NCBI GenBank assembly: GCA_002773855.1
Contig: PEZY01000012.1
Location: forward strand, 4,255 to 68,254
Direction of reading: 5' to 3'
Source: Candidatus Buchananbacteria bacterium CG10_big_fil_rev_8_21_14_0_10_33_19
Lineage (GTDB): Bacteria; Patescibacteriota; Patescibacteriia; 2-01-FULL-39-33
DNA: 64,000 nt
Below the pieces are notes generated by a model. It ran no database searches, was not told the origin of the DNA, and worked only from the letters and a program-made list of their open reading frames with translations. Both the position numbers and the translations under genes were made by a program. Every line of letters begins with the position of its first letter. Within the stretch, counting starts at the first letter, position 1. Of the stretch, positions 19,088-35,760 are shown in pieces.

Positions 19088-19098
19088 TTATATATTTT

Positions 19099-19154
19099 AA
19101 CACTTCAAGCTAGGCTTGAAGTGTTCAATTTGGCTAAATTTAGGGGTTGATTTT
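19099..19154 (+). repeat. palindromic repeat element copy 1 (AACACTTCAAGC-TAG-GCTTGAAGTGTT plus conserved tail CAATTTGGCTAAATTTAGGGGTTGATTTT), followed by AATACTTGACAAA -35-like box
   Basis: Perfect 12-bp inverted repeat with a 3-nt loop. The same element recurs at 21162, 23775, 33909 and 35689 in the same orientation. Confidence 0.8.
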
Positions 19155-19283
19155 AATTAATGGAATACTTGACAAAATTTTTAAAAAAGGGTAGTCTAGT
19201 TGTAGTTGTATTATGGTAATACACATCAAGAAAACCAGACTAATACATAAGGTATAAGTCTACAACCAGAAAAGGGTATAGGT

Positions 19284-19571
19284 ATGTCAAACATTACCGA
19301 CATCCAAGAAGATGACAAGAAGCACCTTCGCAATGTAAAATTTGAGAATACTGATTTTCGAAAAGCCAGGCCAACCTTGATGCGCAGAATTTGTGTCATG
19401 GTGGCGTATCGTGATGGCGCTATTGGGGTTCGAGATTCCAAAGACGCCTCCAGAACGACACTTGTCTTCAATGAAGATGAGTGGAATGCCTTCATCACTG
19501 GCGTTAAGGATGGCGAATTTGATATTGATGTTTTAAAGGTTGCTTTACCTGGCGCATTAGAACGCGTTTAA
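19284..19571 (+). CDS. DUF397-like small protein
   Basis: 95 aa. VAYRDGAIGVRDSKDASRTTLVFNEDEWNAFITGVKDGEFD matches the DUF397 signature (VRDSK...LvF...eW.aFl.gvK.GeFD) known from actinobacterial XRE-associated pairs. Confidence 0.5.
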   Translation: MSNITDIQEDDKKHLRNVKFENTDFRKARPTLMRRICVMVAYRDGAIGVRDSKDASRTTLVFNEDEWNAFITGVKDGEFDIDVLKVALPGALERV

Positions 19572-19667
19572 TTTTAATTCCGAAATGGAATGTGTAGGAG
19601 TAGTTGAAATATATTGCTCCTTTTTTATTTACATTTAAACATATATATATTAATATACTAGTATATT

Positions 19668-20408
19668 ATGCAAGAAAAAAATCTTAAAATTAAATTAGCA
19701 GACGGCCACACTTTGTATGGTAAATTTTCTGGTTCATTTACTGAACCATTGTTTATTGTTTTGCACGGCATGACTGGTGATATGGAAGATGAGCTTTATA
19801 CTATGGCTGTAAACTGGTTTCAAAAAAAACAGTTTGCTACTTTTAGATTTAATTTTTATGGTTTTCAAAAAGACGCTCGTCAGTTGATGGATTCGACTAT
19901 TAAAATTCAAAGTTCGGATTTAGATAGAGTGGTTAAATATTTTAGAAATAAAGGCGTCAAGAAAATTTTTATTGTGGCCCATAGTTTTTCTGGGCCTGTT
20001 GTCTTGTCTTCGGTTGATCGCGACTTTGACGCTGTAGTTTTTTGGGATCCGACGTATAGAATTTCGTTTACCAAGGGTACCAAGGATTTTCCAAGCGGCA
20101 AATATATAAAAGAAGTTGATGCCTATGCTATGCATTGGGGGGTAAATATATTAATCAGTCGAGCATTGGCCAAAGAAGTGGATTCATTCCCTTGGAATAC
20201 AATTACTAAAGATTTGGCAGTGCCATTAAAAATTATTATTGGTGACAATAGTGAATTAAAAGGTTCTAAGAAATATTTAAATGTTTTGAAAGCCGAAAAA
20301 GAATTTGAGGCGCTCAAGGGTGGCACTCATACTTTTAATGATTCAGACAAGATTAGAGAGGCACTATTTAAATCCACTTATTCATGGTTTAAAAAGTTTT
20401 TAAAATAA
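19668..20408 (+). CDS. alpha/beta-fold hydrolase (esterase/dienelactone-hydrolase-like)
   Basis: 246 aa. Nucleophile elbow VAHSFSGPV (GxSxG-type), a preceding HG motif (FIVLHGMTG), and a C-terminal His region (GGTHTF). Confidence 0.65.
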   Translation: MQEKNLKIKLADGHTLYGKFSGSFTEPLFIVLHGMTGDMEDELYTMAVNWFQKKQFATFRFNFYGFQKDARQLMDSTIKIQSSDLDRVVKYFRNKGVKKIFIVAHSFSGPVVLSSVDRDFDAVVFWDPTYRISFTKGTKDFPSGKYIKEVDAYAMHWGVNILISRALAKEVDSFPWNTITKDLAVPLKIIIGDNSELKGSKKYLNVLKAEKEFEALKGGTHTFNDSDKIREALFKSTYSWFKKFLK

Positions 20409-20420
20409 TTAAAATCAAAA

Positions 20421-20453
20421 AACCTCTAGTTAATTTAGCTAGAGGTTTTTTAT
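20421..20453. terminator. bidirectional terminator (CCTCTAG-ttaatttag-CTAGAGG with a T-run); part of a roughly 107-nt segment duplicated at 35455..35560
   Basis: Hairpin with flanking A6 and T6 runs between the convergent hydrolase (+) and TPR (-) genes. Confidence 0.6.
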
Positions 20454-21041
20454 TTGGTTTTCTAAATCACTAATGATTTCTTTTTCTGTTTTTGATAGTT
20501 TCTGTGACCGACTTAATTTTTTGCCATGATCTAGTATCTCCTGGGCTTTTTTCTTTTGATTGGTTCGAATTAGAAGTCTGACAAAATTAAAGTAAGTGCC
20601 ATATGTTGCTTGGGAGGTGGCAATAGCCTTTTGATAGTATTGTTGTGCTTGTTTATCATCCCCGGACATTTTATAGACATTAGCCATGGAGTTTAATATT
20701 TGAGCGTCATTAGGTGTTATGGCTAAAGCTTGATTGTAATAACTTAAGGATTTGGAGGCCTTATTTTTGTGCCAGTATATTCGACCCAGGCCAATTAAGC
20801 CTTTTTTAGATTTTGGATAGTGCTTTAAAATTTGTTGATAAATATTTTTGGCTTTGTGATGTAATAATAATTTTTTACATATAATTTTTTTAGTTTGAGC
20901 TAGGTGGTCATATAAAATTCCCAAACTATAAAGTAGGTCCTCGTTTTGCGGATCGGTTTTTAGAGCGCTCTTTATTTGAGGTATTGGCTCTTTGTAGTTA
21001 CCATTTTTGAGAGCTGAGTCTATTAATTTTTCGAGTTTTTT
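20439..21041 (-). pseudogene. TPR-repeat protein gene, apparently 5'-truncated; the frame is open for about 39 codons upstream of the first possible start (TTG at 20924) and abuts a repeat-element copy
   Basis: The ORF-track protein (161 aa) shows TPR-like helices (YYNQALAITPNDAQILNSMANVYKMSGDDKQAQQYYQKAIA). The upstream in-frame translation LEYDKKLEKLIDSALKNGNYKEPIPQIKSALKTDPQNEDLLYSLG continues TPR-like sequence with no ATG/GTG/TTG before a stop at about 21042. The repeat element begins at about 21110. Confidence 0.45.
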
Positions 21042-21109
21042 ATCATATTCTAATTATAGTTGGAATGTGTTAATAAAACAATATTTTTTCTTTTCTTTGT
21101 TACCTTTCA

Positions 21110-21226
21110 TATTATTGTCATTGTGAGCTCGCGAAGCAATCTCATTTTATTACACTTTTCTAACACTTTACACTAGGCTTGAAGTGTTCGATTTGGCTAA
21201 ATTTAGGGGTTGATTTTTTGGGTAAT
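21110..21226 (+). repeat. palindromic repeat element copy 2, long form (GTCATTGyGAG...GAAGCAATCyCATTTT... plus degenerate hairpin plus GGCTAAATTTAGGGGTTGATTTT tail)
   Basis: About 120 nt alignable to 23730..23848. Here the left hairpin arm is degenerate (AACACTTTACAC vs GCTTGAAGTGTT). Confidence 0.75.
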
Positions 21227-21228
21227 AC

Positions 21229-21260
21229 TTGACAAATCTAATTAATCATGATAATAATAT
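21229..21260 (+). promoter_or_regulatory. repeat-borne sigma70-like promoter (TTGACA-17-TAATAA) reading into the graspetide precursor gene
   Basis: TTGACA at 21229-21234 lies within the conserved AATACTTGACAAA box at the element's end. A -10-like TAATAA is at 21252-21257. Confidence 0.45.
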
Positions 21261-21407
21261 AACTATAAGTTGTACATTATATAAATTCAAGAGTTTTGGC
21301 GACTTATTTATCTTTATTTCTGGCGCATATCGCTAATATAAAACCAATGTTGGTTTTTAGCCAGTGATTAGGATAATAAGTATAACAGAATAGAAAGGAC
21401 TAGTATT

Positions 21408-21524
21408 ATGTGCGCAAAAGCTAACCTACCATTTATTCTTGGTTATTTAGAGCATCATGTCGGCGCTATGTCTGCGACTACCAGTGGTACTCCAGGCGAT
21501 ATCGACTGTTTTGATGAGACTTAG
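21408..21524 (+). CDS. candidate graspetide (microviridin-like RiPP) precursor peptide, 38 aa; absent from the supplied ORF track
   Basis: ATG at 21408 is preceded by AAAGGA 8 nt upstream. Translation: MCAKANLPFILGYLEHHVGAMSATTSGTPGDIDCFDET. The leader motif LPFILGYL resembles the microviridin PFFARFL recognition helix. The C-terminal core is rich in Thr/Ser donors and Asp/Glu acceptors. The gene sits immediately upstream of the ATP-grasp gene. Confidence 0.5.
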   Translation: MCAKANLPFILGYLEHHVGAMSATTSGTPGDIDCFDET

Positions 21525-21535
21525 GAAATTATAAT

Positions 21536-21572
21536 GGGAGGTGGAAATACATATTCACCTCCCATTTTTTTT
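21536..21572 (+). terminator. intrinsic terminator/attenuator between precursor and ATP-grasp genes (GGGAGGTG-12 nt-CACCTCCC-A-T8)
   Basis: Perfect 8-bp GC-rich stem followed by TTTTTTTT, placed 12 nt after the precursor stop and 26 nt before the ATP-grasp start. This precursor-attenuator-enzyme layout is typical of RiPP operons. Confidence 0.6.
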
Positions 21573-21597
21573 CATAAAAAACAAAAGGAGAGTAAAG

Positions 21598-22560
21598 ATG
21601 ATATTAGCTATTGGTAATTCAGGCTCATATGAGGTAGCAGCATTTAATTCCGTCTTAGAAGAATTGAAGAAAAATGGCGAAGAAGCAGTTCTATTTAAAC
21701 AAGATAAATGTCTCGATGGTGAATATTTAGTATTTGAAAGTAATAATGGAGTTACTGTTTATAACGTAATTATTGATGGTAAAGAATATAATATTGATTC
21801 CTTTTCTGCTATTTGGTATATGAAACCTCATCTACCATTAGAGCTAATGGAATTTGAGCCAGCCAAATATCAGCAATTTATTCAGCGTCAGTTTATTGCC
21901 ATGCGAAAAGCACTTTGGTATCTTTTTAAAGATAAAAAATGGATTGATGATCCAATTGTTATTGATAGGGCGGAAAATAAAATATTTCAATTAACCCTAG
22001 CAGAAAAGGCAGGCCTTTTATTGCCAGATACACTAATAACCTCTGATCCAGATAGAATAAGAAAATTTTATGTCGATACCAGTGGCGATTTGGTTGTTAA
22101 ATTATTAGGGTCTAGTCCAATGGTTAATGAAGTCATTTTTACTAATGTGGTAACGCCTGAGTATATGGTTAAAATAGATTCGGTAAAAATGTCACCCTCT
22201 ATTTTTCAACGACGTATTCTAAAAGCCTATGAATTGAGGATAACAATTGTTGGTGATAAAATTTTCCCGATAAAAATTTATTCTCAGGGCGATGAACAAT
22301 TGGAATTGGATTGGCGTAGAAAGCCCAAACTTAATGATTTTGAAGCTAAGATGGAATTAACATCTCTGCCCAGTGAGGTAGAGAAAAAATTAGTATCATT
22401 TATGAAATTAATTGGTTTGCGTTTTGGCTGTATTGATATGATAGTTACTCCAGATGGGGAATATGTCTTTTTAGAAATTAATCCAAATGGGCAGTGGTAT
22501 TTTATCCAACTTCGTATTGAAGTTGAAATAGCCAAAGCGATAGCTACACTTTTACTATAA
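21598..22560 (+). CDS. ATP-grasp ligase, RimK/MdnC-like (candidate graspetide macrocyclase)
   Basis: 321 aa from ATG 21598 (RBS AAAGGAG). The track's 21541 start overlaps the terminator hairpin. N-terminal pre-ATP-grasp domain MILAIGNSGSYEVAAFNSVLEELKKNGEEAVLF, a central ATP-grasp region, and C-terminal GCIDMIVTPDGEYVFLEINPNGQW (E-x-N plus NGQW, as in microviridin-type ligases). Confidence 0.6.
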   Translation: MILAIGNSGSYEVAAFNSVLEELKKNGEEAVLFKQDKCLDGEYLVFESNNGVTVYNVIIDGKEYNIDSFSAIWYMKPHLPLELMEFEPAKYQQFIQRQFIAMRKALWYLFKDKKWIDDPIVIDRAENKIFQLTLAEKAGLLLPDTLITSDPDRIRKFYVDTSGDLVVKLLGSSPMVNEVIFTNVVTPEYMVKIDSVKMSPSIFQRRILKAYELRITIVGDKIFPIKIYSQGDEQLELDWRRKPKLNDFEAKMELTSLPSEVEKKLVSFMKLIGLRFGCIDMIVTPDGEYVFLEINPNGQWYFIQLRIEVEIAKAIATLLL

Positions 22561-22563
22561 AAT

Positions 22564-22606
22564 AAGAGGGAGGGATTAATACATCTTTACCTCTTTTATT
22601 TTCTAT
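22564..22606 (+). terminator. weak terminator-like hairpin after the ATP-grasp gene
   Basis: AAGAGG...CCTCTT stem with a long loop followed by TTATTTT. Confidence 0.3.
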
Positions 22607-22645
22607 ATATTATTGATATTATACTAATATAGATACAAATAAATT

Positions 22646-23209
22646 ATGAAACAAAAAATTAATGAAAATTTATTAAAGAACATCAAAGAGATGTTTGATG
22701 CTGACCAAGATTTAAGGAATCTTTGGGATAATAAAGATCTAACCAAACCACTTGCGCAGTGGAGTGGTAAAAATTCGGCAAAAAATAAATTAAATTTTGG
22801 CTTAATTAATTATTTAGTTTATTTTGTCGATGCAGCGCACAATCCTAGACTTCATCGAATAATAGAACAATATGGCTATCCCACCACCAAGTTACTTGGC
22901 AAGAAAGGGATGTTATATTTTTTTGTTTTAATTGATCATCAGGATTATGATATTGATTTACAAAAAGCGTGTTTGGCAAAATGTGATTTCGAAAAAAAAC
23001 ATATAGCCAATTTAACAGATAGAATTTTACTTCACGAAGGTAAAAAGCAGATATATGGCACAATGTTCCAGCGAGATTCTAAGGGTCAGAAAATAATTTC
23101 TCAACCAATTGCCGATAAGAAAAATGTTGATAAGAAAAGAAAAGAAATGGGCCTTGGGCCACTGCAGATTGCTTTGGATTCTATGAATAAAAAGTTTTAT
23201 AAAAAATAA
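22646..23209 (+). CDS. hypothetical protein of unknown family (paralog of 23246..23644)
   Basis: 187 aa. It shares ...A.L.DRI...KKQIYGT.F......Q.I..P.........KRKEMGL.P... with the neighbouring minus-strand ORF. No motif is recognised. Confidence 0.45.
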   Translation: MKQKINENLLKNIKEMFDADQDLRNLWDNKDLTKPLAQWSGKNSAKNKLNFGLINYLVYFVDAAHNPRLHRIIEQYGYPTTKLLGKKGMLYFFVLIDHQDYDIDLQKACLAKCDFEKKHIANLTDRILLHEGKKQIYGTMFQRDSKGQKIISQPIADKKNVDKKRKEMGLGPLQIALDSMNKKFYKK

Positions 23210-23245
23210 TATTTAGTAAATAAAAAGTGATAACTGTAATTATTA

Positions 23246-23644
23246 TCACTTTTTTTGTAGATTTTTTTGAGATTCTGATAATTTATTTTTATATTTTTCA
23301 AATGGCTCCAGACCCATTTCTTTTCTTCGCTTGTTGAGTGTCGATTTATTTTTGATTGGCCGATTTATAAACCTTCTATTTTTTGTTAAATAAAATTGAG
23401 TGCCATAGATTTGCGGCAGTTTTTTGTTGGTTTGAATTCGGTCTGTTAAATAGGCTAGTTGCCATAGTGGCACTTGTTTGGCTTTCATTAGTTCTAGACA
23501 TTGTTCCTGAAATTTAATGTCTTTGTCAGCATGTTGTGCGATAAGCCAAGCACCAGATGACGCCTTCTCGCCAACAATTTTAATATCGGGCCAGCCATAT
23601 TTGTCTATTATTTTTTTGTCATCCCGCACCCAACCACTTGTCAT
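23246..23644 (-). pseudogene. N-terminally truncated paralog of the 22646 gene, abutting a repeat element
   Basis: 132 aa aligning to the C-terminal ~130 residues of the 187-aa paralog (IIDKYGWPDIKIVGEK... vs IIEQYGYPTTKLLGKK...; QIYGTQF..RKEMGLEP). The 5' end coincides with repeat-derived sequence (TTGTCATCTC...). Confidence 0.4.
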
Positions 23645-23681
23645 CTCGACCCCATTCGACTACGCTCAAGGTAAACTCCGC

Positions 23682-23706
23682 GGAGCGGAGTGGAGTGGAG
23701 TGGAGT
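23682..23706. repeat. pentanucleotide tandem repeat (GGAGY)x5 adjacent to a 10-bp palindrome CTCCGCGGAG
   Basis: GGAGC GGAGT GGAGT GGAGT GGAGT read directly; it lies inside the repeat-element mosaic. Confidence 0.7.
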
Positions 23707-23729
23707 GATCCCTTTTCTATTTGTCATCT

Positions 23730-23848
23730 CATCTATCACCGTCATTGCGAGGGACGAAGCAATCCCATTTTTATCGCACTCTAGCGAACACTTCAATCTA
23801 GGCTTGAAGTGTTTGTTTTTGGCTTAATTTAGGGGTTTATAGTTATTG
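23730..23848 (+). repeat. palindromic repeat element copy 3, long form (GTCATTGCGAGGGACGAAGCAATCCCATTTT...AACACTTCAATC-TAG-GCTTGAAGTGTT...GGCTTAATTTAGGGGTTTATAG)
   Basis: Alignable over about 120 nt with copy 2. Partial extra fragments (TTGTCATCTC) lie upstream at 23637 and 23717. Confidence 0.75.
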
Positions 23849-23849
23849 T

Positions 23850-23878
23850 TTGACTTATTGTAATAAATACTGTATAGT
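23850..23878 (+). promoter_or_regulatory. sigma70-like promoter TTGACT-17-TATAGT; predicts a leaderless transcript of the half-size hsdS gene
   Basis: The -10 TATAGT ends at 23878. The hsdS-half ATG is at 23885, about 7 nt downstream, so the A of the ATG is at the expected +1. Confidence 0.5.
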
Positions 23879-23884
23879 ACCTAC

Positions 23885-24469
23885 ATGTATAAAAAAATAA
23901 AAGAATTAACTAATATATCATCTGGGTATACTTTTCGCGGATCTATCAAAAATGATTCAAAAGGAAATATTTTTGTAATCCAGGCAAAAAATATTTATGC
24001 TAATAAAGATATTATAAATATTGATGGCTTTTCGACAATATTAGATGATTCTATAAGAAATCCATTTTTTTTAGAATATAATGATATATTACTGGTTAGT
24101 AGAGGTTCTGGCTTTAATTCTTTTCGTTCTGCTGTTTTTACATCTAATATAAAGAATGTAATGCCATCGTCTTCAGTACATGTGATTCGTGTTAAAGATG
24201 TGAATATAATTCCAAAATATCTGTCTTTATATTTAAATTCAGATATTGGACAAAAATCATTATATCAAATTGTTACTGGTGGTGCATATATTCAGAGTAT
24301 GCTCATTAAGGATTTAAATGAATTAGAAATTCCAATACCACCTATTAATACCCAAAAATCTATTATAGCAATTCACGAAAACGCAGCAAAACAAGAATTA
24401 TTGTATACAAGAAAACAAGAGATTCAAAAAAACATTATTAATTCAATATTTATTAATCTGACAAAATAA
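23885..24469 (+). CDS. hsdS: Type I R-M specificity subunit, half-size (single target-recognition domain)
   Basis: 194 aa, a single TRD followed by the conserved HsdS helical region LNELEIPIPPINTQKSIIAIHENAAKQELL (compare LP.L.EQ..I). It is half the length of the downstream hsdS. Confidence 0.65.
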   Translation: MYKKIKELTNISSGYTFRGSIKNDSKGNIFVIQAKNIYANKDIINIDGFSTILDDSIRNPFFLEYNDILLVSRGSGFNSFRSAVFTSNIKNVMPSSSVHVIRVKDVNIIPKYLSLYLNSDIGQKSLYQIVTGGAYIQSMLIKDLNELEIPIPPINTQKSIIAIHENAAKQELLYTRKQEIQKNIINSIFINLTK

Positions 24470-24473
24470 TTTT

Positions 24474-24704
24474 ATGAAGAACAAGCCATACAAGACAATT
24501 AAAGAAACACCTTCTGGTCGCAATAAGAAAAGTATTAATTTAAATAATCTTTCAAGGGAAAAGAATAAAGAACTGATTAAAAAAGTAGAGACTGTAGGCG
24601 TACCAGGTTATCACGTTGTAAAGCGTAAAGGTGAGAAAAAATTTTTACGATCTAATCTTGATCGAAGGAAAAAGAATAATCTAGATCCTAAAATTAATAA
24701 ATAA
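24474..24704 (+). CDS. hypothetical small lysine-rich protein
   Basis: 76 aa, 30% K/R, tightly packed between hsdS-half and hsdM. No motif. Confidence 0.3.
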   Translation: MKNKPYKTIKETPSGRNKKSINLNNLSREKNKELIKKVETVGVPGYHVVKRKGEKKFLRSNLDRRKKNNLDPKINK

Positions 24705-24705
24705 T

Positions 24706-26217
24706 ATGACTACAAAAAAATACACACAAGAAGATTTGAATAAAATCCTCTGGCAAGCAGCGGATTCTTCACGCACTCAAGTAGATGCAGGGATCTATAA
24801 AGACTATGTGCTTGTAATGCTTTTTTTTAAATATCTTTCTGACCTTTCAAAGAAAAAGCATAATGAGTATAAAGAGCGTTTTGGTAATGACGAAAAGCGT
24901 ATTGAAGAGAAGATGAAACTCGATCGTTTTTATCTACCGCCAAAAGTTTCTTTTGATTATATTTATAAAGTTATTGAACAAGACAATCTCGGAGAAGAAA
25001 TAGACAAAGCACTTCACGCAATCGAAGACGCAAACAAAGAAAAACTTGAGAATATGTTTTTAAATGTGTCATTTAATTCTGAAGTCTTAGGGAAAAGCCA
25101 AGAACGAAACAAGATGCTTCGGCACCTTGTGCATGATTTTGCAAAAATAGATTTGTCAGATGTAAAAGACGACATCATTGGTAATTCATATATGTATATG
25201 ATCGAACGCTTTGGAGCCGATGCGGGCAAAAAAGCGGGAGAATTCTTTACTGTCAGAAATGTTGCACATCTTGTAGCAAAATTCGCTGAACCAAAGGCAG
25301 GAAGTCGTATTTGTGATCCTTGTATGGGTTCAGGTGGACTACTCCTTCTTGCGGGTGAAGAGGTAGAAAAACTAGGCTCAAAAAATTATGCTCTGTATGG
25401 ACAAGAATCTACTGGTTCAACCTATCAATTAGCACGGATGAACATGTTCCTTCATGGAAAAGATTCTGCACGACTGGAGTGGGGCGACACACTAAACAAT
25501 CCACTCCTTGTTGAAAATGACAAGTTGATGAAATTTGACACCATTGTTGCTAATATGCCATTTTCTCTCAGCAAATGGGGTGCTGAAAATGCCGGCGGAG
25601 ATAAATATAACCGCTTTTGGAGAGGTGTTCCGCCAAAGGACAAAGGAGATTTTGCTTTCATAACTCATATGGTTGAAACACTTAAGGCAAAAACTGGACG
25701 AATGGTGGCCATTGCTCCTCACGGGGTACTCTTTAGAGGTGGTGCCGAGGGGAAGATTCGAGAACAATTACTTAAAGAAAATGTGATCGATGCAGTGATC
25801 GGACTTCCTGCAGGACTTTTCCAAACAACTGGTATTCCTGTGGCAATTCTTATTCTTGATCGAACGCGTGAAAAAGGTGGAGAAAATGAAAAAACAAAAG
25901 ATGTCTTCTTTATTGAAGCATCAAAAGAATTCAAAGCACAAAAGGCTCAGAATATTTTGACTGATGAGAATATTGAAAAAATTTATTCTACCTACAAAAA
26001 GCGCAAGGATGTAGAAAAACTTGCTCGTAAGGTTTCTATCAAAGAGATTGAAGAAAATGATTTCAATCTTAATATAACTCGGTATGTTGACACCTTTGTC
26101 GAAGAAGAACCTGTCGACATCAAGGCAAACCTTGAGGAATTGGCGAAACTTGAACCAGAACTTCAAAAACTTGAAAAACAAATGGTCGAATATTTAAAGG
26201 AATTAGGAATCAAATAA
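24706..26217 (+). CDS. hsdM: Type I R-M N6-adenine DNA methyltransferase subunit
   Basis: 503 aa. N-terminal HsdM_N-like region (LWQAADSSR...[16 protein letters not shown]), AdoMet motif [13 protein letters not shown], and motif IV VANMPFS (NPPF-like). Confidence 0.9.
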
Positions 26218-26221
26218 ATAT

Positions 26222-27511: not shown

Positions 27512-27563
27512 AAATTCGACTGAATAGTCGCTAAACTAATTATTAATTAATAAAATATTATTT

Positions 27564-27887: not shown

Positions 27888-27952
27888 TTTTAAGTTAGTT
27901 AGATACACGTATTTAAATAGGTGTATCTATACTGTTTTAAAACAGTAATTTT

Positions 27953-29146
27953 ATGAAAACTAATCAAACACAAAAAAATATTCCTACTGAATGGCAAGAA
28001 ACAAGGCTTGTTGATATTGGCGTATTTTCAAAAGGTTCTGGGATAACGAAAGATCAACTTATAGTGACTGGTCATAACGCTATTCGATATGGTGAATTAT
28101 ATACAAAATATAATTTTAAAATTGAAAAAGTTTATTCACATATACCGACAGAAATAATACCCACAACAACTAAAATTAAATATGGAGACATCTTGCTTGC
28201 AGGGTCTGGTGAAACTAATGAAGAAATTGGAAAATCAGCAACCTATCTTTTACATGAAGACTGTTACGCTGGGGGTGATTTAATTATATTTAGTCCTAAA
28301 AATGCAAATAGTTTATTTCTATCGTATTTTTTAAACATCGGAGAAGGTAGGAAAAAATTAACTGAGTTAGGGCAAGGTCAGTCCGTTGTGCATATCTATA
28401 AAAGTGAAGTTGAGAAATTAAAACTACATTTACCATCTCTTCCTGAACAGAATAGGATTGTTTCAGTTATAGAAACTTGGGATAAATCTATTGAAAAACT
28501 TTCAAATAAAATTGAAATTAAAAAACAAATAAAAAAAGGTTTGATGCAAGATTTGTTGACCGGAAAGAAGAGGTTGCAGGGATTTAATGATAAATGGAGA
28601 TTTGTAAATCTTGGTGGTACTTGTCAGGAGATTAAAACTGGAAAGTTGGATGCAAATGCAATGGTAAAAAATGGTAAGTATAGATTTTATACTTGTGCTA
28701 AAGATTTTTATCTTATTGATGATTATGCTTTTGATACAGAGGCACTACTTGTATCTGGCAACGGTGCAAATGTTGGATATGTTCATTATTACAAAGGCAA
28801 GTTCAATGCGTACCAAAGGACATACGTATTGTATGAATTTAATGAAAATATTCTATTTATTAAATATTTATTAGATATATTTCTAAAGATTCGAATAAAA
28901 GAAGAAGTTCGTGAAGGTAATACACCTTATATAACTATGGATACGCTGACGGATATGAGTTTGAAAATACCGTCGAAGAAAGAACAGCAAAGAATTGTAA
29001 ATATATTAAGCACTGCAGACGAAGAAATAAAAAGACTTGAGAATAAATTAAAGATACTAAAAGAACAAAAACGATACCTCCTCAACAATCTCATCACTGG
29101 CACAATTCGTACACCAGAAACTTTATTAGCAAAATTAACCAAATAA
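27953..29146 (+). CDS. hsdS: Type I R-M specificity subunit, full length (two TRDs)
   Basis: 397 aa with two repeats of the conserved HsdS spacer helices: LPSLPEQNRIVSVIETWDKSIEKL and IPSKKEQQRIVNILSTADEEIKRLE. Confidence 0.85.
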   Translation: MKTNQTQKNIPTEWQETRLVDIGVFSKGSGITKDQLIVTGHNAIRYGELYTKYNFKIEKVYSHIPTEIIPTTTKIKYGDILLAGSGETNEEIGKSATYLLHEDCYAGGDLIIFSPKNANSLFLSYFLNIGEGRKKLTELGQGQSVVHIYKSEVEKLKLHLPSLPEQNRIVSVIETWDKSIEKLSNKIEIKKQIKKGLMQDLLTGKKRLQGFNDKWRFVNLGGTCQEIKTGKLDANAMVKNGKYRFYTCAKDFYLIDDYAFDTEALLVSGNGANVGYVHYYKGKFNAYQRTYVLYEFNENILFIKYLLDIFLKIRIKEEVREGNTPYITMDTLTDMSLKIPSKKEQQRIVNILSTADEEIKRLENKLKILKEQKRYLLNNLITGTIRTPETLLAKLTK

Positions 29147-29150
29147 ATAT

Positions 29151-32100
29151 ATGTCACTAGAAAAAGTAAATTTCGATGAAGCAAGGCAATCACAACTCGC
29201 ACTAGTAGAGCTTCTTTTGAATATGGGATATGAATATATATCTGCAGAAGATACGCTTAAACAGCGTGGTGACACAACAAACTTCATTCTTGCTGATATT
29301 GCATCTGAAAAACTGATGGAGATAAACAGTTATGAGGTTGGCGGTACCGAGTATAAATTTAGTGAGAAAGATGTTCGAGATGCAGTCGATGAACTGGAAC
29401 ATATCCAATACGAAGGATTAATTGATACGGCTCAGAAGATATACAACATCATCATGCCAACGAGTGGTGGTAAAACTATTAAGGTAAATCATGGAGGCAA
29501 GAAAGTATCGAAGAACTTTAAGTTTATTGATTTCCAGAACCCTAAAAATAATGCGTTCCACGTAACTGTCGAATTCCAAGCGACAGGTAAGCAAAATATT
29601 CGTCCCGATATCGTATGTTTTATAAATGGTATTCCTTTTGCGGTTATTGAGAACAAGAAGTCTAGCGTACCTGTAGCTGAAGCTTTGAATCAAATGAATC
29701 GCAATCAAGGTCCAGAATTTTGTCCGAAATTATATACCTACACTCAACTTCTTGTTGGTACAAATGGTAAGGATTTGCAGTATGGAACAACGGGTACTCC
29801 AAATAAGTTTTATGCATTATGGAAAGAAAAAGGATCTGATGTTGAAATTCTGAATAAAGAAATTAGTGATCTAATTCAAAAACCAATTAATATAGAGGTA
29901 TATGCAAAAGTATTACAAGATTTGAACGGATACACACAGAGACATACTCAAAGAACTAATCGTATTCCGACTGAACAAGATCGAGGGGTATATTCATTAT
30001 TCCGCCCAGAAAGACTTCTTGATCTTACTAAAAATTACATCCTGTTTGATGCAGGTGTAAAAAAGCTTTCACGTTATCAGCAGTATTTTGCAATACATAA
30101 AATGCTAGGGCGTGTGGAAGAAACAGAAACTACGGAACAAGGTATTACTCGCAGAAAAGGTGGGCTTGTTTGGCATACTCAAGGATCAGGAAAGTCTTTA
30201 ACCATGGTTATGTTTGTGAAGGCACTTATTGAAAATCCCAACATCTTGAATCCTAGGGTTATTATTGTTACCGACCGTCGAGACTTGGATAAACAGATAA
30301 AGGATACTTTCAAAAACTGTAATCTTAAGAAGGAAGTCATCCAAGCTACAAGTGGTCAGAACTTGATCGATTTAATTAAAGAGAAAAATCTTTCTGTTGT
30401 AACAACGCTTGTTCATAAATTTGAATCCGCCGCAAAGAAAAGTTCAGGACTGGTTGATACTGATGAAAATATATTCGTTCTTATTGATGAAGCTCACCGC
30501 AGTCAAAATGGTGTAGCGAACTTTGAAATGAACCGTATTATTCCAAATGCATGCTATATCGGGTTTACTGGTACTCCACTCATGAAAGATGAGAAAGAGA
30601 GTTGGAGAAAGTTTGGTGGCTATATTGATAAATATACGATTGACGATGCGTTAGCAGACAACATTATTCTTCCTCTGATTTATGAGGGTCGTTACGTTGA
30701 TCTTATTCAGAATGCAGAACAGATTGATCGTCATGTGGAACGTATTACAGAAGTATTAAACGACAAGCAAAAGAAAGAATTACAGAGATATGTTGGAAGT
30801 AAGATAATTAAGGATAATCCACAGCGTATTGTTGAGATTGCTTATGATATTGAAAAACACTTCACTGAGAATTTTCAGAACACTGGGTTAAAAGCACAGA
30901 TTGTTGCTCCATCTAAATATTCAGCGATTCTATTCCAGAAGTTTTTTGAGAATCGTGGAAACATCAGAACGGCGGTTATCATTTCTGATGAACACGAGGA
31001 TGGCGATGAGGTTAATCTTCATAAGAAAGAAGTGGTTTTATATCTTGATGGTGTTAGGAAAAACCACAGTAATGTTGATAAATATGAGAAAGATGTGGTT
31101 GATAGTTTTAAGCACAATGAAGATGGAATTGAAATGATTATTGTTTGCGATAAACTGCTTACTGGATTTGATGCCCCTAGGAATACTGTTTTATATTTGG
31201 CCAAAGATTTGCGCGATCATAATTTACTTCAGGCCATTGCTCGCGTAAATCGCTTATTTGAAAATAAAAAAGAAAAACCAAAAACCGCTGGATACATTGT
31301 GGACTATTCAGAAAATGCTAAAAATATAGACACAGCAATGAAGCTTTTTGGTAATTATGATGAAAATGATGTTAAGGGAACCTTGATTGATGTCTCTGAA
31401 AAAATCCAAGAGCTTGAGCAAAGTTACTCACTGGTCCATGACCTATTCAAAAAGATTAAAGGTTCAAATGATGACGAAGTATATCTGCAATTCCTAGCTG
31501 ATCAACCAAAGAGAGAAATATTCTATAAAACACTCAATTCGTTTATTAAAAACCTAAGTGAATGTTTTGTCTTACAAGATTTTGTACATGAATTCAAACA
31601 CCTTGATCTCTACAAGCGTGAGTTGAAGAAATTTGCTGAACTTCGTAAAGCGGCTAGTTTGCAATACGCTGATCGTGTAGATCTTCTGGAATATAAACAA
31701 TCACTTATTAATATTCTTGATAAGTATGTTGATGCTCGTGGTGTTGAATTGCTTACCAAACAAGTAAATATTACAGATAGGAAAATGTTTGAAGAAGCAA
31801 TAGAAAATCTCGGATCTGATAAATCAAAAGCAGAAGCTATTGCTGCACAAACACAAAAAACTATTACAGAGAAGATTAACACAGATCCTGAATTTTATGA
31901 GAAGTTTTCTAAAAAGATTTTCGAGATTCTTGAAAAGATGCGACAAGGAAAACTTGCTGACGTTGAGACCTTGAAACAAATGAAGTTAATTCATGAGGAC
32001 GTAGTTAATAAAAAGGACGATAGTCTTCCAGAGAAGATTGAGTTAGAAAAAGGATCAGATGTGTTTTATAGAAATCTACGAACACAGTTTGAGGGTCTTA

Positions 32101-32342
32101 AAATCGATGAGAAAACTTATATTTCTGTAATTCTGGATATCTTCTCAATCATAAAAAATGAAGCTATTGTTGATTGGTATAAAAATATTGATGTAAAAAG
32201 AAAGATGAGAAATAGCATAGATGATTACTTATATGATATTGTTAAAGGAGATAAAAGAATTACTATTACAAATGATGATATAAAAATTATTATTGATACA
32301 GCAATACAGTTGGCGGAAAATAATTATGATTTATTTTTATAA
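29151..32342 (+). CDS. hsdR: Type I restriction enzyme R subunit (endonuclease + SF2 helicase)
   Basis: 1063 aa. N-terminal nuclease region, helicase motif I HTQGSGKSLTM, motif II VLIDEAHRSQ (DEAH), motif III GFTGTP, and motif VI region QAIARVNR. Confidence 0.9.
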   Translation: MSLEKVNFDEARQSQLALVELLLNMGYEYISAEDTLKQRGDTTNFILADIASEKLMEINSYEVGGTEYKFSEKDVRDAVDELEHIQYEGLIDTAQKIYNIIMPTSGGKTIKVNHGGKKVSKNFKFIDFQNPKNNAFHVTVEFQATGKQNIRPDIVCFINGIPFAVIENKKSSVPVAEALNQMNRNQGPEFCPKLYTYTQLLVGTNGKDLQYGTTGTPNKFYALWKEKGSDVEILNKEISDLIQKPINIEVYAKVLQDLNGYTQRHTQRTNRIPTEQDRGVYSLFRPERLLDLTKNYILFDAGVKKLSRYQQYFAIHKMLGRVEETETTEQGITRRKGGLVWHTQGSGKSLTMVMFVKALIENPNILNPRVIIVTDRRDLDKQIKDTFKNCNLKKEVIQATSGQNLIDLIKEKNLSVVTTLVHKFESAAKKSSGLVDTDENIFVLIDEAHRSQNGVANFEMNRIIPNACYIGFTGTPLMKDEKESWRKFGGYIDKYTIDDALADNIILPLIYEGRYVDLIQNAEQIDRHVERITEVLNDKQKKELQRYVGSKIIKDNPQRIVEIAYDIEKHFTENFQNTGLKAQIVAPSKYSAILFQKFFENRGNIRTAVIISDEHEDGDEVNLHKKEVVLYLDGVRKNHSNVDKYEKDVVDSFKHNEDGIEMIIVCDKLLTGFDAPRNTVLYLAKDLRDHNLLQAIARVNRLFENKKEKPKTAGYIVDYSENAKNIDTAMKLFGNYDENDVKGTLIDVSEKIQELEQSYSLVHDLFKKIKGSNDDEVYLQFLADQPKREIFYKTLNSFIKNLSECFVLQDFVHEFKHLDLYKRELKKFAELRKAASLQYADRVDLLEYKQSLINILDKYVDARGVELLTKQVNITDRKMFEEAIENLGSDKSKAEAIAAQTQKTITEKINTDPEFYEKFSKKIFEILEKMRQGKLADVETLKQMKLIHEDVVNKKDDSLPEKIELEKGSDVFYRNLRTQFEGLKIDEKTYISVILDIFSIIKNEAIVDWYKNIDVKRKMRNSIDDYLYDIVKGDKRITITNDDIKIIIDTAIQLAENNYDLFL

Positions 32343-32345
32343 TTT

Positions 32346-33050
32346 ATGAAATTTATTTTTGGAACATTTATATATGACTATCAGAGAATAACTCAAAATC
32401 GTAAAACTTTGAGTTTAACTGTTTCCCCTGATTCCAGTATTACTCTTAAATGTCCGGATAATATTGATAATGAAAAAATACAGTTATTTTTACAAAAAAA
32501 GTGGTTTTGGCTGGAAAAGCAATTATCTTTTTTTAAGCAATATCAGCGGAAAATTTATAAAAGAGAATATATTTCTGGTGAGGGATGTTTATATCTAGGA
32601 AGACAATATAAAATTGTTATCAAAAATAGCACCGAAGATAAAGTTGTTCTTACTAGGGGTCAGCTTATTGTTAATACCAGAAGACAGGTTTCAAATAGTA
32701 GTTATAATAAGAAACTTATTGATGAGTGGTTTTTAAACAGAATAAAAGTTGTTTTTGATGACAGATTTTCAGAAATACAGTCAAAATTTGGTTATCATGA
32801 CACATCAGGATACTCTATTAGAGAAATGAGACGTCGATGGGGTAGTATTTTAAAACAGAAAAAGGTTTTATTAAATCCAAAATTAATTCATGCATCAAAA
32901 GATTGTATTGACTATGTGATAACTCATGAATTATGTCATAGAAAATATAAAAATCACGATAAAAGATTTTATAAATATCTTCAAGAAAAATATCCAAGAT
33001 GGGAAAAAGTAAAGGATAAGTTGGAGATATTAGGATCAATGATTTATTAA
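32346..33050 (+). CDS. DUF45/YgjP-family predicted zinc metallohydrolase (frequently linked to hsdR)
   Basis: 234 aa. C-terminal HELCHRKYKNHDKRFY matches the YgjP HExxH...NH motif. The gene starts 4 nt after the hsdR stop. Confidence 0.7.
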   Translation: MKFIFGTFIYDYQRITQNRKTLSLTVSPDSSITLKCPDNIDNEKIQLFLQKKWFWLEKQLSFFKQYQRKIYKREYISGEGCLYLGRQYKIVIKNSTEDKVVLTRGQLIVNTRRQVSNSSYNKKLIDEWFLNRIKVVFDDRFSEIQSKFGYHDTSGYSIREMRRRWGSILKQKKVLLNPKLIHASKDCIDYVITHELCHRKYKNHDKRFYKYLQEKYPRWEKVKDKLEILGSMIY

Positions 33051-33065
33051 TTATTTATTGTAATA

Positions 33066-33524
33066 ATGGATCTAAAAAAAATAAATGAATTTTCTGCAGC
33101 AAAGATATATATTAGATCGTTAAAATTAAATTTCTCTGATAAAGATTTTGAATTTCCACCACAATACGATAATATCGATATTGTTTATAAACCATTAAAT
33201 TTTAAATTTCAGATAACTTCTGTCGATGGAGGACCAAATAAATTACTGCGTCATGGTCAATATGAATATCAAATTAAAGTCGATAAACTAATTGAGGAAT
33301 ATGTTTTATTTCCTATAAATAAAAAATATGATGCGTATAAAGGAGGTGGAGTTGATGATATTATTTTGTTAATACATGTATTAAGAAAACCATTTAGAGA
33401 TAATTTATTTGATTTAGAAATTGATAAAAATATAGGTATAATAAAAGAATGTGCTTTAAGGAGCAAATTTAAGTCAATTTATTTAGTATTTGATTTTAAA
33501 AATGAAGTAATTCGTATTTGGTAA
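33066..33524 (+). CDS. hypothetical protein
   Basis: 152 aa, no recognisable motif. Tightly linked downstream of DUF45. Confidence 0.35.
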   Translation: MDLKKINEFSAAKIYIRSLKLNFSDKDFEFPPQYDNIDIVYKPLNFKFQITSVDGGPNKLLRHGQYEYQIKVDKLIEEYVLFPINKKYDAYKGGGVDDIILLIHVLRKPFRDNLFDLEIDKNIGIIKECALRSKFKSIYLVFDFKNEVIRIW

Positions 33525-33549
33525 AATTTTAATTATTAATCATAATCCC

Positions 33550-33903
33550 ATGCTTCAATCTCTCTTTGCCATCTCTATTATCCTCCTAATTTTGGCCCTC
33601 TTTAAAATTAAATCTTTAAAGCAGGAAATTACGGCCCTAACTGCCGAAGCTTCCAGCGAGCACAAAGAATTATCCTATTTATCGGAGTATAATAATAAGG
33701 TGCAGGAAATTAAAACGCAAAAAGAGAATCAGATTTTGGAACTTTTTACTAAAGAGGCTAAAGTGTCTAATCGGGATGTGGTAAAATTATTACAAATTTC
33801 TAGTGCCACGGCTTTTCGGTATTTGGACGATTTAGAAAAAGCGGGTAAAATCGCCCAAAACGGCAAATTTGGTAAAACGGTATTTTATAGTAAAATTAAA
33901 TAA
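33550..33903 (+). CDS. membrane-anchored protein with C-terminal winged-helix/HTH-like domain
   Basis: 117 aa. N-terminal TM (LFAISIILLILALF), a coiled segment, and a C-terminal VVKLLQISSATAFRYLDDLEKAGKI resembling an HTH recognition helix. Confidence 0.35.
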   Translation: MLQSLFAISIILLILALFKIKSLKQEITALTAEASSEHKELSYLSEYNNKVQEIKTQKENQILELFTKEAKVSNRDVVKLLQISSATAFRYLDDLEKAGKIAQNGKFGKTVFYSKIK

Positions 33904-33908
33904 ATTCT

Positions 33909-33940
33909 AACACTTCAAGCCTAGTCTGAAGTGTTCGAAA
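33909..33940 (+). repeat. palindromic repeat element copy 4 (hairpin only: AACACTTCAAGCC-TAG-TCTGAAGTGTT)
   Basis: Same hairpin with 2 mismatches, 14 nt upstream of the sppA start codon. Confidence 0.7.
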
Positions 33941-33953
33941 TTAATATCAATAT

Positions 33954-34829
33954 ATGATCACTAAAATCAAAAAAATCATGTTTATGAAAATCGACTTGGC
34001 TGGGCTTAAAAAGCTTGCCATTGGCCTAGTTGTTTTAGCCGCTTTTATTACTGTCGCCAATGAAGCCTATTACTGGTTTGGCGATAGCTCTAGTTATGAT
34101 GAGTTAAGTGAGGAGAGTTTGGCCGAAAATGATTGTAATGTTATTGGCATTGAACTGCATGGTGATTTATATACATATTTAAGTCCAGATAATAAAGATG
34201 CCGATGGCTTGCCCCTAGTAAATGAAGTGGCTTCGGAAAGTATTATGGGGATGATTAATAGCGCTGAAGAAGATGAAAACATAAAAGCCATTTTATTAGA
34301 AGTGGATTCCTATGGCGGTTTGCCTGTAGCCGGTGAAGAAGTGGCTAAGGCTATGAAGAATACCACCAAGCCAACCGTTACTATGATTCGTAGCGCTGGC
34401 ACCTCGGCCGCTTATTGGGCGGCGACTGGCGCCGATATTATTTTTGCATCTCGTAATTCTGATGTGGGCGGGATTGGCGTGACGATGTCGTATGTGGATA
34501 ATGTGACACAAAATAAAAATGACGGTCTAACTTATAATAGTTTGAGTACTGGCAAGTATAAAGACTATGGCGATCCTAATAAGCCATTAACTGTAGAAGA
34601 AAAGCAACTTTTCCAGCGTGATTTAAATATCCTGCATCAAAATTTTATAGAGGCAGTAGCGGAGAGCCGGAATTTGGATATTAAGACCGTGGCCAAATTA
34701 GCCGATGGTTCTACAATGTTAGGGGCAATGGCTTTGGAAAATGGTTTGATTGATAGAATTGGCGGTATAATCGAAGTAAATAATTATCTTAAAGAACAGA
34801 TTGGCGGAGAGCCGGAAATTTGTTGGTAA
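33954..34829 (+). CDS. sppA: signal peptide peptidase SppA (S49 family, 36K type)
   Basis: 291 aa. N-terminal TM, and the S49 core LLEVDSYGGLPVAGEEVAKAM...SAGTSAAYWAATGADIIFASRNSDVGGIGV with the catalytic Ser/Lys context. Confidence 0.75.
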   Translation: MITKIKKIMFMKIDLAGLKKLAIGLVVLAAFITVANEAYYWFGDSSSYDELSEESLAENDCNVIGIELHGDLYTYLSPDNKDADGLPLVNEVASESIMGMINSAEEDENIKAILLEVDSYGGLPVAGEEVAKAMKNTTKPTVTMIRSAGTSAAYWAATGADIIFASRNSDVGGIGVTMSYVDNVTQNKNDGLTYNSLSTGKYKDYGDPNKPLTVEEKQLFQRDLNILHQNFIEAVAESRNLDIKTVAKLADGSTMLGAMALENGLIDRIGGIIEVNNYLKEQIGGEPEICW

Positions 34830-34844
34830 TAAATAATATAAATT

Positions 34845-35447
34845 ATGAAACAAGTTTTAATAATAAATGGTGGCAGTACTTTTGATTCTGATGAAGACTA
34901 TTTAGAATCTCTTAAAAATAAAGTTTTGTCATTAAATAAAATGAAGCTTCAATTAGATTGGAAAAATAGTCTGCAGGCTGATTTGGGCGATAAATATCAA
35001 GTCTTGGTGCCAAGAATGCCAAATACTAGTAATGCTAAATATAATGAATGGAAGATTTGGTTTGAAAAGACAGTCGCTATACTAAATGATAATTTTATTT
35101 TGATTGGCCATTCGTTGGGTGGAATTTTTATAGCTAAATATTTATCGGAAAATAAAATTGCTAAAAAAATTATAGCTACTATTTTAGTCGCGCCTCCACA
35201 TGGTGATATTATTGGTGGTGAAAGTCTAGGATCTTTTAATTTACTAAATGATTTAAAATTATTTGGCGAACAGGCTAGCAGTATTACAATATTTTTTAGC
35301 CGTGATGATGTCGTCGTGCCAATTGAACATATGGCAAAATATCAAAATGATTTGCCAGAGGCTAAGTATATTGTTTTTGATGACCGTGGTCATTTTAATA
35401 CGTTGGAATTTTCTGAATTAGTGGAGGAGATTAAAAGTTTAAATTAG
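34845..35447 (+). CDS. alpha/beta hydrolase, RBBP9/YdeN-like serine hydrolase
   Basis: 200 aa. Nucleophile elbow LIGHSLGG, then later D (DDVV) and H (GHF) for the triad. The size and motif spacing fit the YdeN/DUF1234-type hydrolases. Confidence 0.6.
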   Translation: MKQVLIINGGSTFDSDEDYLESLKNKVLSLNKMKLQLDWKNSLQADLGDKYQVLVPRMPNTSNAKYNEWKIWFEKTVAILNDNFILIGHSLGGIFIAKYLSENKIAKKIIATILVAPPHGDIIGGESLGSFNLLNDLKLFGEQASSITIFFSRDDVVVPIEHMAKYQNDLPEAKYIVFDDRGHFNTLEFSELVEEIKSLN

Positions 35448-35454
35448 TTATAAT

Positions 35455-35560
35455 AAAAAATCCCTAGTTAATTTAACTAGAGATTTTTTATTTGGTTTTC
35501 TAAGTCAATTATGATTTCTTTTTCAGTTTTTGATAGTTTTTGTAACTGACTTAATTTTTT
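35455..35560. repeat. duplicated ~107-nt segment (about 90% identical to 20416..20522): terminator hairpin plus a relic of the TPR gene 3' end
   Basis: AAAAAATCCCTAGTTAATTTAACTAGAGATTTTTTATTTGGTTTTCTAAGTCAATTATGATTTCTTTTTCAGTTTTTGATAGTTTTTGTAACTGACTTAATTTTTTT versus the sequence downstream of the 19668 hydrolase gene. In this copy the minus-strand TPR reading frame is not maintained as an ORF. Confidence 0.7.
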
Positions 35561-35688
35561 TAATTGTTTGGTCATGTGTAGATTATAATTGGATTTTTTT
35601 AATGTGACAATGATTAATACATATGGTAAAAATAGCCTAAAATAGTAGTATTTTCTATGCTATGTTTTATGGTAAAATAAGCCAAAAT

Positions 35689-35722
35689 TTAACACTTCAA
35701 GCATAGGTTGAAGTGTTAGAAT
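35689..35722 (+). repeat. palindromic repeat element copy 5 (AACACTTCAAGC-ATAG-GTTGAAGTGTT)
   Basis: Same hairpin family, followed 10 nt later by a TTGACA box. Confidence 0.7.
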
Positions 35723-35731
35723 ATTTTTGTC

Positions 35732-35760
35732 TTGACATTTTGTTAATTTTATGATAAATA
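35732..35760 (+). promoter_or_regulatory. sigma70-like promoter TTGACA-17-TAAATA downstream of repeat copy 5
   Basis: Read directly; it predicts a transcription start near 35767 for the gene starting at 35805 (RBS AGGGAGA). Confidence 0.45.

Follow-up and report, generated by a model that had tools for sequence, protein, structure and literature searches.

The island and its palindromes

We analysed a window of 64,000 nucleotides (64 kb) from Candidatus Buchananbacteria bacterium CG10_big_fil_rev_8_21_14_0_10_33_19 (contig PEZY01000012.1, positions 4,255 to 68,254), in which a 27-nt palindrome with the structure AACACTTCA-N9-TGAAGTGTT occurs in five copies. All five are intergenic, as an earlier note on this DNA had stated, and all lie inside a hypervariable island of 17.5 kb (19046..36627) flanked on the left by a TSP3-repeat gene (18209-19045) and on the right by a GIY-YIG gene (36628-36882), with no copy in the 47 kb of core DNA; the core genes of the window include those encoding ParAB, RelA, TopA, DprA, Der, and HisRS. 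The island carries a DUF397 gene, a hydrolase gene, a TPR gene, a graspetide operon, two DUF6624 genes, a Type I restriction-modification (RM) operon, a gene encoding a small winged helix-turn-helix (wHTH) protein, an S49 peptidase gene, and a second hydrolase gene. The count of five given in the earlier note was upheld: 100 dinucleotide-preserving shuffles, used as the null model, produced no match, and a profile search of the 64 kb with nhmmer, all filters off, found no sixth copy. The 9-mer arm appears approximately 10 times in the window, nine of these being exact arms of the five palindromes, and single copies show no excess. Hairpin stabilities ranged from -12 to -18 kcal/mol, with z-scores of -2.6 to -4.7 for four of the five copies.

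Mismatches were counted against copy 1, and copies 4 and 5 match best on the minus strand. Copy 1 (19099-19125, plus strand, exact; 19099..19151 with its tail, CAATTTGGCTAAATTTAGGGGTTGAT) is situated 3' of the canonical terminator of the TSP3-repeat gene (19057-19085) and 5' of the DUF397 gene. Copy 2 (21162-21188, plus strand, three mismatches; 21162..21214 with its tail) has a degenerate left arm (AACACTTTA) and shares 83% identity with copy 1 over 95 nt (21145-21236 versus 19083-19176), including the -35 box. Copy 3 (23787-23813, plus strand, one mismatch; 23787..23840 with its tail) and copy 4 (33909-33935, minus strand, two mismatches) form, as its left and right member, an inverted pair around the Type I RM operon and the wHTH gene. 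Copy 4 begins 6 nt past the wHTH stop codon (33903), and its "tail" corresponds to the final codons of that gene (33879-33908). Copy 5 (35691-35717, minus strand, two mismatches; 35661..35717 with its tail) has a tail pointing left and a flank that resembles a decayed wHTH C-terminus (..FYGKIS). The starts first given for copies 1, 2, and 4 are correct, while those of copies 3 and 5 shift by 12 and 2 nt, from 23775 to 23787 and from 35689 to 35691. The five copies had also been placed on a single strand; according to loop and tail, in both BLAST and nhmmer comparisons, copies 1-3 point rightward and copies 4-5 leftward.

The cargo between copies 3 and 4 (23885..33524, plus strand) is composed of a half hsdS, hsdM, a DUF2130 gene, hsdS, hsdR, a YgjP-like peptidase gene, and small genes without an assigned function, and includes a Type I RM system. 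The wHTH gene (33550..33903, plus strand) is the last of this operon, its stop codon abutting copy 4, and encodes a protein of 117 aa that begins with a membrane anchor, continues as a coiled coil, and ends in a winged helix. Its Pfam matches were HTH_24, IclR, and DeoR. The AlphaFold model (mean predicted local distance difference test score of 90) consists of a long helix (residues 2-68) with a hydrophobic N-terminus, followed by the winged helix (71-115). A finer classification was sought with a PDB sequence search, NCBIfam, and AlphaFold combined with Foldseek, which returned generic winged helices only, the fold matches being eS25, ArsR/CadC, MarR, and ROK. Homologues of 113-122 aa are common in Patescibacteria, and an NCBI protein identical to that of the window is labelled Candidatus Falkowbacteria.

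Related loci and conservation of the site

An inverted palindrome pair brackets cargo plus a wHTH gene in four genomes: the window (copies 3 and 4) and the related loci L120, L129, and L132. The bracketed cargo is mutually unrelated, corresponding to the Type I RM system in the window, a Type III-like system in L120, a Type IIG system with PDDEXK and HNH genes in L129, and a DUF805 gene in L132. From this recurrence across related loci, the sequence comparison delineates a recurring unit composed of a palindrome with its tail inward, a predicted promoter, variable cargo, the wHTH gene, and an inverted palindrome. In six genomes (the window, L120, L125, L126, L129, and L132), the hairpin begins 5-6 nt past the wHTH stop codon.

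The loci differ in what surrounds this core. In L120, where the TSP3 protein is 80% identical, one copy, which has the same tail, precedes the Type III-like operon, and the second, inverted copy directly follows a 118-aa gene whose product is 71% identical to that of 33550-33903. A tRNA with the anticodon CTA, which reads amber codons, is located immediately after this right-hand palindrome (L120 11267-11339). L125 (wHTH 68% identical) shows the order wHTH gene, hairpin, S49 peptidase, hydrolase, hairpin, its two hairpins being orthologous to copies 4 and 5 of the window. In L126 (58%), biosynthetic cargo is followed by the wHTH gene, the hairpin, and the GIY-YIG gene, whereas L129 (52%), also from Buchananbacteria, carries a Type IIG-like system inside the inverted pair. 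L127 (49%) bears GmrSD, NERD, and MmeI-like cargo and has five palindrome copies within 14 kb, with a canonical terminator fused to three of these; here, about seven tandem-like AAGATT motifs come after the wHTH stop codon (10355-10425). In the group L131-L140 (54% over 78% of the length), the inverted pair surrounds DUF805, two genes of no assigned function, and the wHTH gene. L051 contains an orthologue of the copy 1 locus, in which the site is orthologous and the downstream gene is different; its island cargo, like that of L120 and L126, differs from that of the window. Finally, in L121 and L124 (TSP3 protein 73% and 67% identical), hardly any sequence separates the TSP3 gene from GIY-YIG or MsrB, and the island, the wHTH gene, and the palindrome are all absent from 20 kb of otherwise syntenic DNA.

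Two further features of these loci were recorded. A gene for a Cas4-like PDDEXK_1 nuclease precedes the wHTH gene in three relatives (L120 9876-10673, L125 1-231, and L129 8773-9528); its products are 76-91% identical to one another, and therefore better conserved than the wHTH protein, and the equivalent slot of the window holds an unrelated 152-aa open reading frame (ORF; 33066-33524). In L132, a gene encoding a Y1 transposase that resembles the tyrosine transposases associated with repetitive extragenic palindromic (REP) elements (RAYT-like) directly follows the wHTH gene and hairpin (3260-4085). A perfect 46-nt palindrome (GTAGAGACCCGAGGTCTACC...) is found in frame inside this gene and again just past its stop codon. 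The hairpin described here was considered as the REP of the RAYT-like gene and rejected, since the gene carries this different palindrome.

Conservation of the site was assessed in an alignment of 23 copies, 22 of them distinct. Seven genomes (the window, L051, L120, L125, L126, L127, and L091), whose neighbouring proteins are only 49-80% identical, share exactly the same arms, AACACTTCA/TGAAGTGTT. The nine outer pairs are almost invariant and 98.5% paired, and the only double change, from T-A to C-G, is found in both L132 copies (AACACCTCA/TGAGGTGTT). The recognition helix of the L132 protein reads TVVRY, compared with TAFRY elsewhere, so that site and helix changed together in this one lineage. 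Three positions inward from the arms, a C..G pair (columns 15 and 20) is kept in 21 of the 22 distinct copies, while pairing at the two intervening positions is missing from half of the copies and the inner positions 10-11 are free, a pattern that would fit base-specific contacts better than stem stability. The spacer measures 8, 9, or 10 nt, giving sites of 26-28 nt; it is nearly identical within a genome (inverted in bracketing pairs) and different between genomes. As judged from this alignment, the arms are shown to be under purifying selection at the sequence level, which a plain terminator would not need. Arms that are invariant between genomes, together with a spacer that is concerted within each genome, indicate that it is the sequence of the arms that is recognised, presumably by a protein.

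Beyond these loci, species-representative genomes yielded 29 single pattern matches, all attributable to chance and with unrelated flanks, and no related copy of the 9-N9-9 layout, so that either the source species has no entry in this set or its representative is without the site. A metagenome scan gave 82 matches, among which only L051, L069, L082, L091, and L101 are members of the family, with L072, L081, L099, and L065 uncertain. Half of the 82 belong to a single sample (Ga0307512, within L033-L110) and were rejected as an unrelated repeat, probably of eukaryotic origin; about 40 contigs of this sample carry AACACTTCAAACTCTCTTTGAAGTGTT in a long, conserved, non-bacterial-looking repeat that matches the pattern and does not belong to the family. 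Searches of IMG/VR viral contigs, phage records, and plasmid records returned neither a family member nor a wHTH homologue. In the Rfam search, only tRNAs exceeded the gathering thresholds, and nothing was obtained at the copies at E <= 1. We found no description of the element in the literature on the topic, and the 27 papers containing both arm strings appear unrelated. The window itself matches contigs of several samples at 100% identity (JGI Ga0210043_1000004, ENA ERZ27293358, and Logan SRR6050905); look-ups of the MsrB and DUF397 proteins matched only 100%-identical contigs, without strain variation among these.

Flanking sequences and neighbouring repeats

The tail GGCT(A/T)AATTTAGGGGTT(G/T)AT is common to copies 1-3, in agreement with what had been described before, and every copy has the sequence YGATTTT after the stem on the tail side. 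The tails of copies situated away from wHTH genes are homologous, as reverse complements, to the 3'-terminal ~20 nt of the wHTH gene (alignment score of 2.28, versus -2.65 +/- 0.57 in shuffles). For example, TTAGCCAAAATCG before the hairpin resembles TTAGCTAAAATCG, whose TAA is the stop codon. Based on this homology, every palindrome copy looks as if it derived from a segment comprising the 3' end of a wHTH gene plus the hairpin. A second small hairpin in the tail (AATTT-GGCT-AAATT) was sought, the pattern being too AT-rich and variable to judge, and G-U asymmetry as a guide to the transcribed strand gave too few and mutually conflicting cases.

Promoters were predicted with a simple sigma-70 scan, scored out of 12. 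Downstream of copy 2, a site with the structure TTGACA-18-AATAAT (21229..21258, plus strand, 11/12) lies upstream of the genes encoding a 38-aa graspetide precursor and an ATP-grasp protein, and 3' of copy 3, TTGACT-17-TATAGT (23850..23878, plus strand, 10/12) ends 6 nt ahead of the half-hsdS ATG. These two rank among the best sigma-70-like matches of the region. On the tail side of copy 5, TTGTCA-17-TATAAT (35582..35610, minus strand, 11/12) reads into a 32-aa remnant of the TPR gene. The promoters proposed after four copies were retained for copies 2 and 3, whereas the sites after copies 1 and 5 combine a good -35 with a -10 of only 3/6, and the region as a whole is not enriched in promoter-like sites (100 found versus 90 +/- 8 in shuffles). 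The box AATACTTGACAAA, thought to recur at copy 5, is not shared by it; the tail of this copy points left toward the minus-strand site at 35610-35582. The notion of an outward promoter carried by the element likewise lost its footing, given that the co-orientation on which it was based is not real and the distance from palindrome to promoter is not fixed.

Two of these sites adjoin other features. The 38-aa precursor gene and its MvdD/RimK-like ATP-grasp neighbour form a graspetide-type operon (21408-22560), and copy 2, together with the best promoter-like site of the region, is located 150-250 nt upstream of it. Near copy 5, a 130-nt duplication (20392-20522 and 35433-35560, 87% identical) contains a bidirectional terminator and the 3' end of the TPR gene, and what remains in its second copy is a 32-aa ORF (35482-35580, minus strand) downstream of the strong promoter-like site.

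In a terminator scan, copy 3 (plus strand), copy 4 (minus strand), and copy 5 were classed as terminator-like. The genes on either side of copies 2 and 3 are divergent, and a canonical terminator precedes copy 1. With respect to the truncated genes said to abut two copies, the DUF6624 paralog beside copy 3 has lost sequence at the 5' end, its Pfam match spanning profile positions 49-166 of 173, and truncation of the TPR gene near copy 2 is plausible. The left extension of copies 2 and 3 is real, measuring about 45 nt rather than the ~70 nt described earlier, and it belongs to a separate, REP-like repeat family, GTCATTGYGAG-N5-GAAGCAATC, represented by GTCATTGTGAGCTCGCGAAGCAATC at copy 2 (21117..21141, plus strand) and by its partner left of copy 3 (23741-23765). 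In three genomes, this family, GTCATCCCGCAC, GTCATCTCGACC, and a GGAGT run cluster at palindrome junctions (window 21117-21141, 23618-23651, 23684-23706, and 23741-23765; L051 100-260; L125 655-735), and these clustered repeats look like REP-type repeats of Patescibacteria.

Outside the island, two giant genes (974 and 3336 aa; 44050-57009) contain T4SS-pilin-like, Laminin_G, and repeated Cys/Asp-rich motifs and keep their synteny in relatives. In a tRNA cluster (14043-14118), ARAGORN calls a tRNA with an odd two-base anticodon.

Candidate roles of the palindrome

The earlier note had offered either a mobile promoter cassette resembling a miniature inverted-repeat transposable element (MITE) or a common operator of one dimeric regulator. 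The former is poorly supported: no direct repeats that could represent target-site duplications flank any copy or bracketed unit, the palindrome itself is the only terminal inverted repeat, and no transposase gene lies nearby. Comparison of orthologous loci also speaks against mobility, with copies 4 and 5 at orthologous positions in L125, where the wHTH protein is only 68% identical, and with arms that are conserved and not drifting. The operator is the better of the two explanations, and a candidate regulator can be proposed in the wHTH protein (33550-33903), whose orthologues occur together with the palindrome in five other genomes.

We accordingly favour, tentatively and with a probability of roughly 0.4, a reading in which the palindrome is a protein-recognised boundary or operator site of the membrane-anchored wHTH protein. 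This protein is the most likely binder because its gene is the only conserved companion of the palindrome and adjoins a copy in six genomes, and because protein and site have changed jointly in one lineage; its binding would control or insulate transcription. The inverted half-sites are conserved at orthologous sites across species with the putative regulator gene adjacent, and the joint absence of wHTH gene and palindrome where the island is missing (L121 and L124) also counts in favour of an operator, as does the confinement of all five window copies to the island. The recognition site would comprise the two 9-nt half-sites, AACACTTCA and TGAAGTGTT, and the conserved C..G pair, arranged around the spacer of 8-10 nt, and would mark the borders of transcription units in the hypervariable accessory and defence island of this Falkowbacteria/Buchananbacteria-like groundwater Patescibacterium. 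The second, inverted copy is placed after the terminator of the previous gene, 20-55 nt upstream of the predicted promoter of the cargo operon. Once produced from the operon, the wHTH protein could bind both ends of its own unit and also further units (copies 1, 2, and 5), which would provide feedback control of the island operons and protect them against transcription that enters from outside.

Several observations weigh against this proposal. The palindrome centre lies at approximately -63, -70, -85, -90, and -92 from the inferred start sites, on no fixed helical face, and the gap between hairpin and -35 box ranges from 14 to 52 nt, rather than the fixed position expected of an operator. Half-site centres are 17-19 bp apart, a spacing that varies by genome. 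A symmetric operator would leave unexplained why paired copies are always inverted, why the spacer is nearly identical within a genome, and why the position just outside the arms, where all four Watson-Crick pair types occur, keeps its complementarity. The covariation of protein and site comes from a single lineage (L132), and L127 is an exception in which no hairpin follows the wHTH gene. Moreover, wHTH homologues are widespread in Patescibacteria, yet species-representative genomes lack a related copy of the palindrome, and in L069, L082, and L091, from another metagenome, it lies between housekeeping genes and resembles a bidirectional terminator. The inverted orientation, the homogeneous spacer, the variable promoter distance, and the copies at housekeeping genes keep two alternatives alive.

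According to one of these, which we regard as rather unlikely, the palindrome is a REP-like structural repeat whose hairpin and short U-tract act at the RNA level as a directional terminator, an insulator, or a 3'-end stabiliser; it would have spread by local duplication of the wHTH 3' end plus hairpin, with the stem held constant by some factor. The hairpins are indeed stable, the YGATTTT motif and the terminator-like calls at copies 3, 4, and 5 suit a terminator, and pairing extends beyond the conserved arms. The homology of the other tails to the wHTH 3' end and the near-identical subfamilies within a genome, such as the five copies of L127 with three fused to terminators, agree with such a spread, as do the copies at the 3' ends of housekeeping genes in L069, L082, and L091. 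Short intergenic palindromes in both orientations, with terminator-like potential and clustered with other repeats at the same junctions, are also what REP elements and bacterial interspersed mosaic elements (BIMEs) look like, and a RAYT-like gene adjoins the wHTH gene and hairpin in L132. That gene, however, has its own, different REP, and the window encodes no RAYT. No GTAG-type tetranucleotide is conserved on the 5' side, the flanks varying among TTTT, TTCT, AGCG, CCCG, TTTC, and others, and the 64 kb contain only five copies, all in one island and none in the core DNA of the window, with arms conserved across genera. A terminator would need no invariant stem sequence in genomes so diverged; in addition, no gene ends at copies 2 and 3, copy 1 and the left copy of L132 already lie behind canonical terminators, and a U-tract is missing from the sense strand of the copy that follows the wHTH gene.

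The other alternative, which we consider unlikely, holds that the copies are ends or crossover sites of exchangeable cassettes, the arms being bound by a recombinase or transposase from elsewhere that exchanges strands in the spacer, so that blocks of cargo would be moved or swapped and the island built thereby. A copy is present at nearly every synteny break, namely after TSP3 (window, L051, and L120), before cargo operons, after wHTH genes, and after the hydrolase (window and L125). Truncated or apparently truncated genes abut copies 2, 3, and 5, the wHTH unit occupies different chromosomal positions in the window, L129, and L132, and the ends are conserved in four genomes with unrelated cargo. 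Arms conserved between genomes around an asymmetric centre that is uniform within a genome (layout 12-2-12, 12-3-12, or 12-4-12) would correspond to binding arms and an overlap region. In Acinetobacter dif modules (pdif), inversely oriented palindromic sites of ~28 bp flank cargo while the recombinase is encoded elsewhere (PMC6449649), and conserved arms, a variable centre, and cargo between inverted sites are common to both arrangements. In contrast to pdif, the arm sequence here is unrelated to dif, the sites vary from 26 to 28 nt instead of following the 11-6-11 layout of 28 bp, the outer parts of the arms are fixed and the inner parts free, which is the reverse of the dif pattern, and there is no evidence for Xer or for rearrangement at these chromosomal sites of Patescibacteria. 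Likewise, integron attC sites are imperfect palindromes that punctuate an array of unrelated accessory genes, whereas the present site is 5' of the unit together with a promoter-like sequence and forms a perfect stem (9-12 bp) without extrahelical bases; R and L boxes are absent from it, and the window contains no intI or other integrase gene. Further points against exchange are that none of seven loci encodes a recombinase or transposase, that the contigs of the source species are all 100% identical with no rearranged variant, that target-site duplications are lacking, that viral, phage, and plasmid records contain no copy, that inverted sites would invert the segment and not excise it, and that truncated neighbours point to illegitimate rather than precise recombination.

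A DNA uptake sequence or a parS-like segregation site was also considered, as DprA and ParAB are encoded in the window. Uptake sequences of Neisseria and Haemophilus often form inverted pairs in terminators, which would favour such a role. We rejected both as highly improbable on account of the arm counts, the layout, and the confinement to the island: the 9-mer is essentially limited to the arms, without an excess of single copies in genes, and the 9-N9-9 layout differs from the 16-bp parS, no canonical parS being present in the window.

The closest functional analogue of the favoured boundary or operator module is BrxR/CapW, in which a small wHTH gene similarly travels with unrelated defence cargo. 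BrxR proteins are soluble wHTH regulators associated with many unrelated phage-defence systems; they bind as homodimers to a specific sequence ahead of the operon and have been suggested to act during horizontal transfer (10.1101/2021.12.19.473356). BrxR contains WYL and WCX domains, and its gene is the first of the operon, whereas the protein described here is a 117-aa combination of anchor, coiled coil, and wHTH encoded by the last gene, with the presumed site at both ends of the unit in inverted orientation rather than upstream of the operon; no sequence similarity between the two was found. A small HTH protein encoded within an RM operon also recalls the controller (C) proteins of RM systems. 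These are soluble and XRE-type, and time expression through a palindromic box just upstream of their own gene. The wHTH gene, in contrast, also accompanies non-RM cargo (L126 and L132).

There is a modest chance that the element represents a new cassette system. More specifically, we view it as doubtful that the palindrome pair and the membrane-tethered wHTH protein form either a new exchangeable cassette, with unrelated defence cargo being swapped or inverted at its ends by a trans-acting factor, or an insulated loop of foreign DNA bridged by the protein and tethered to the membrane. If this were true, it would constitute a cassette or boundary system parallel in function to integrons or dif modules and built from unrelated parts, and if the sites recombine instead of serving as an operator, they would define a new gene-cassette system. 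Patescibacteria possess very small genomes, and little is understood of the ways in which they gain defence genes and regulate them. The architecture, with a palindrome at both ends, the wHTH gene at the 3' side, and cargo ranging from Type I, Type III-like, and Type IIG RM systems to biosynthetic genes, recurs across several genera. If the protein does bind the palindrome, it would provide these bacteria with a simple regulator or boundary module for newly acquired genes, and the 27-nt motif would become a practical marker of variable islands in uncultured genomes.

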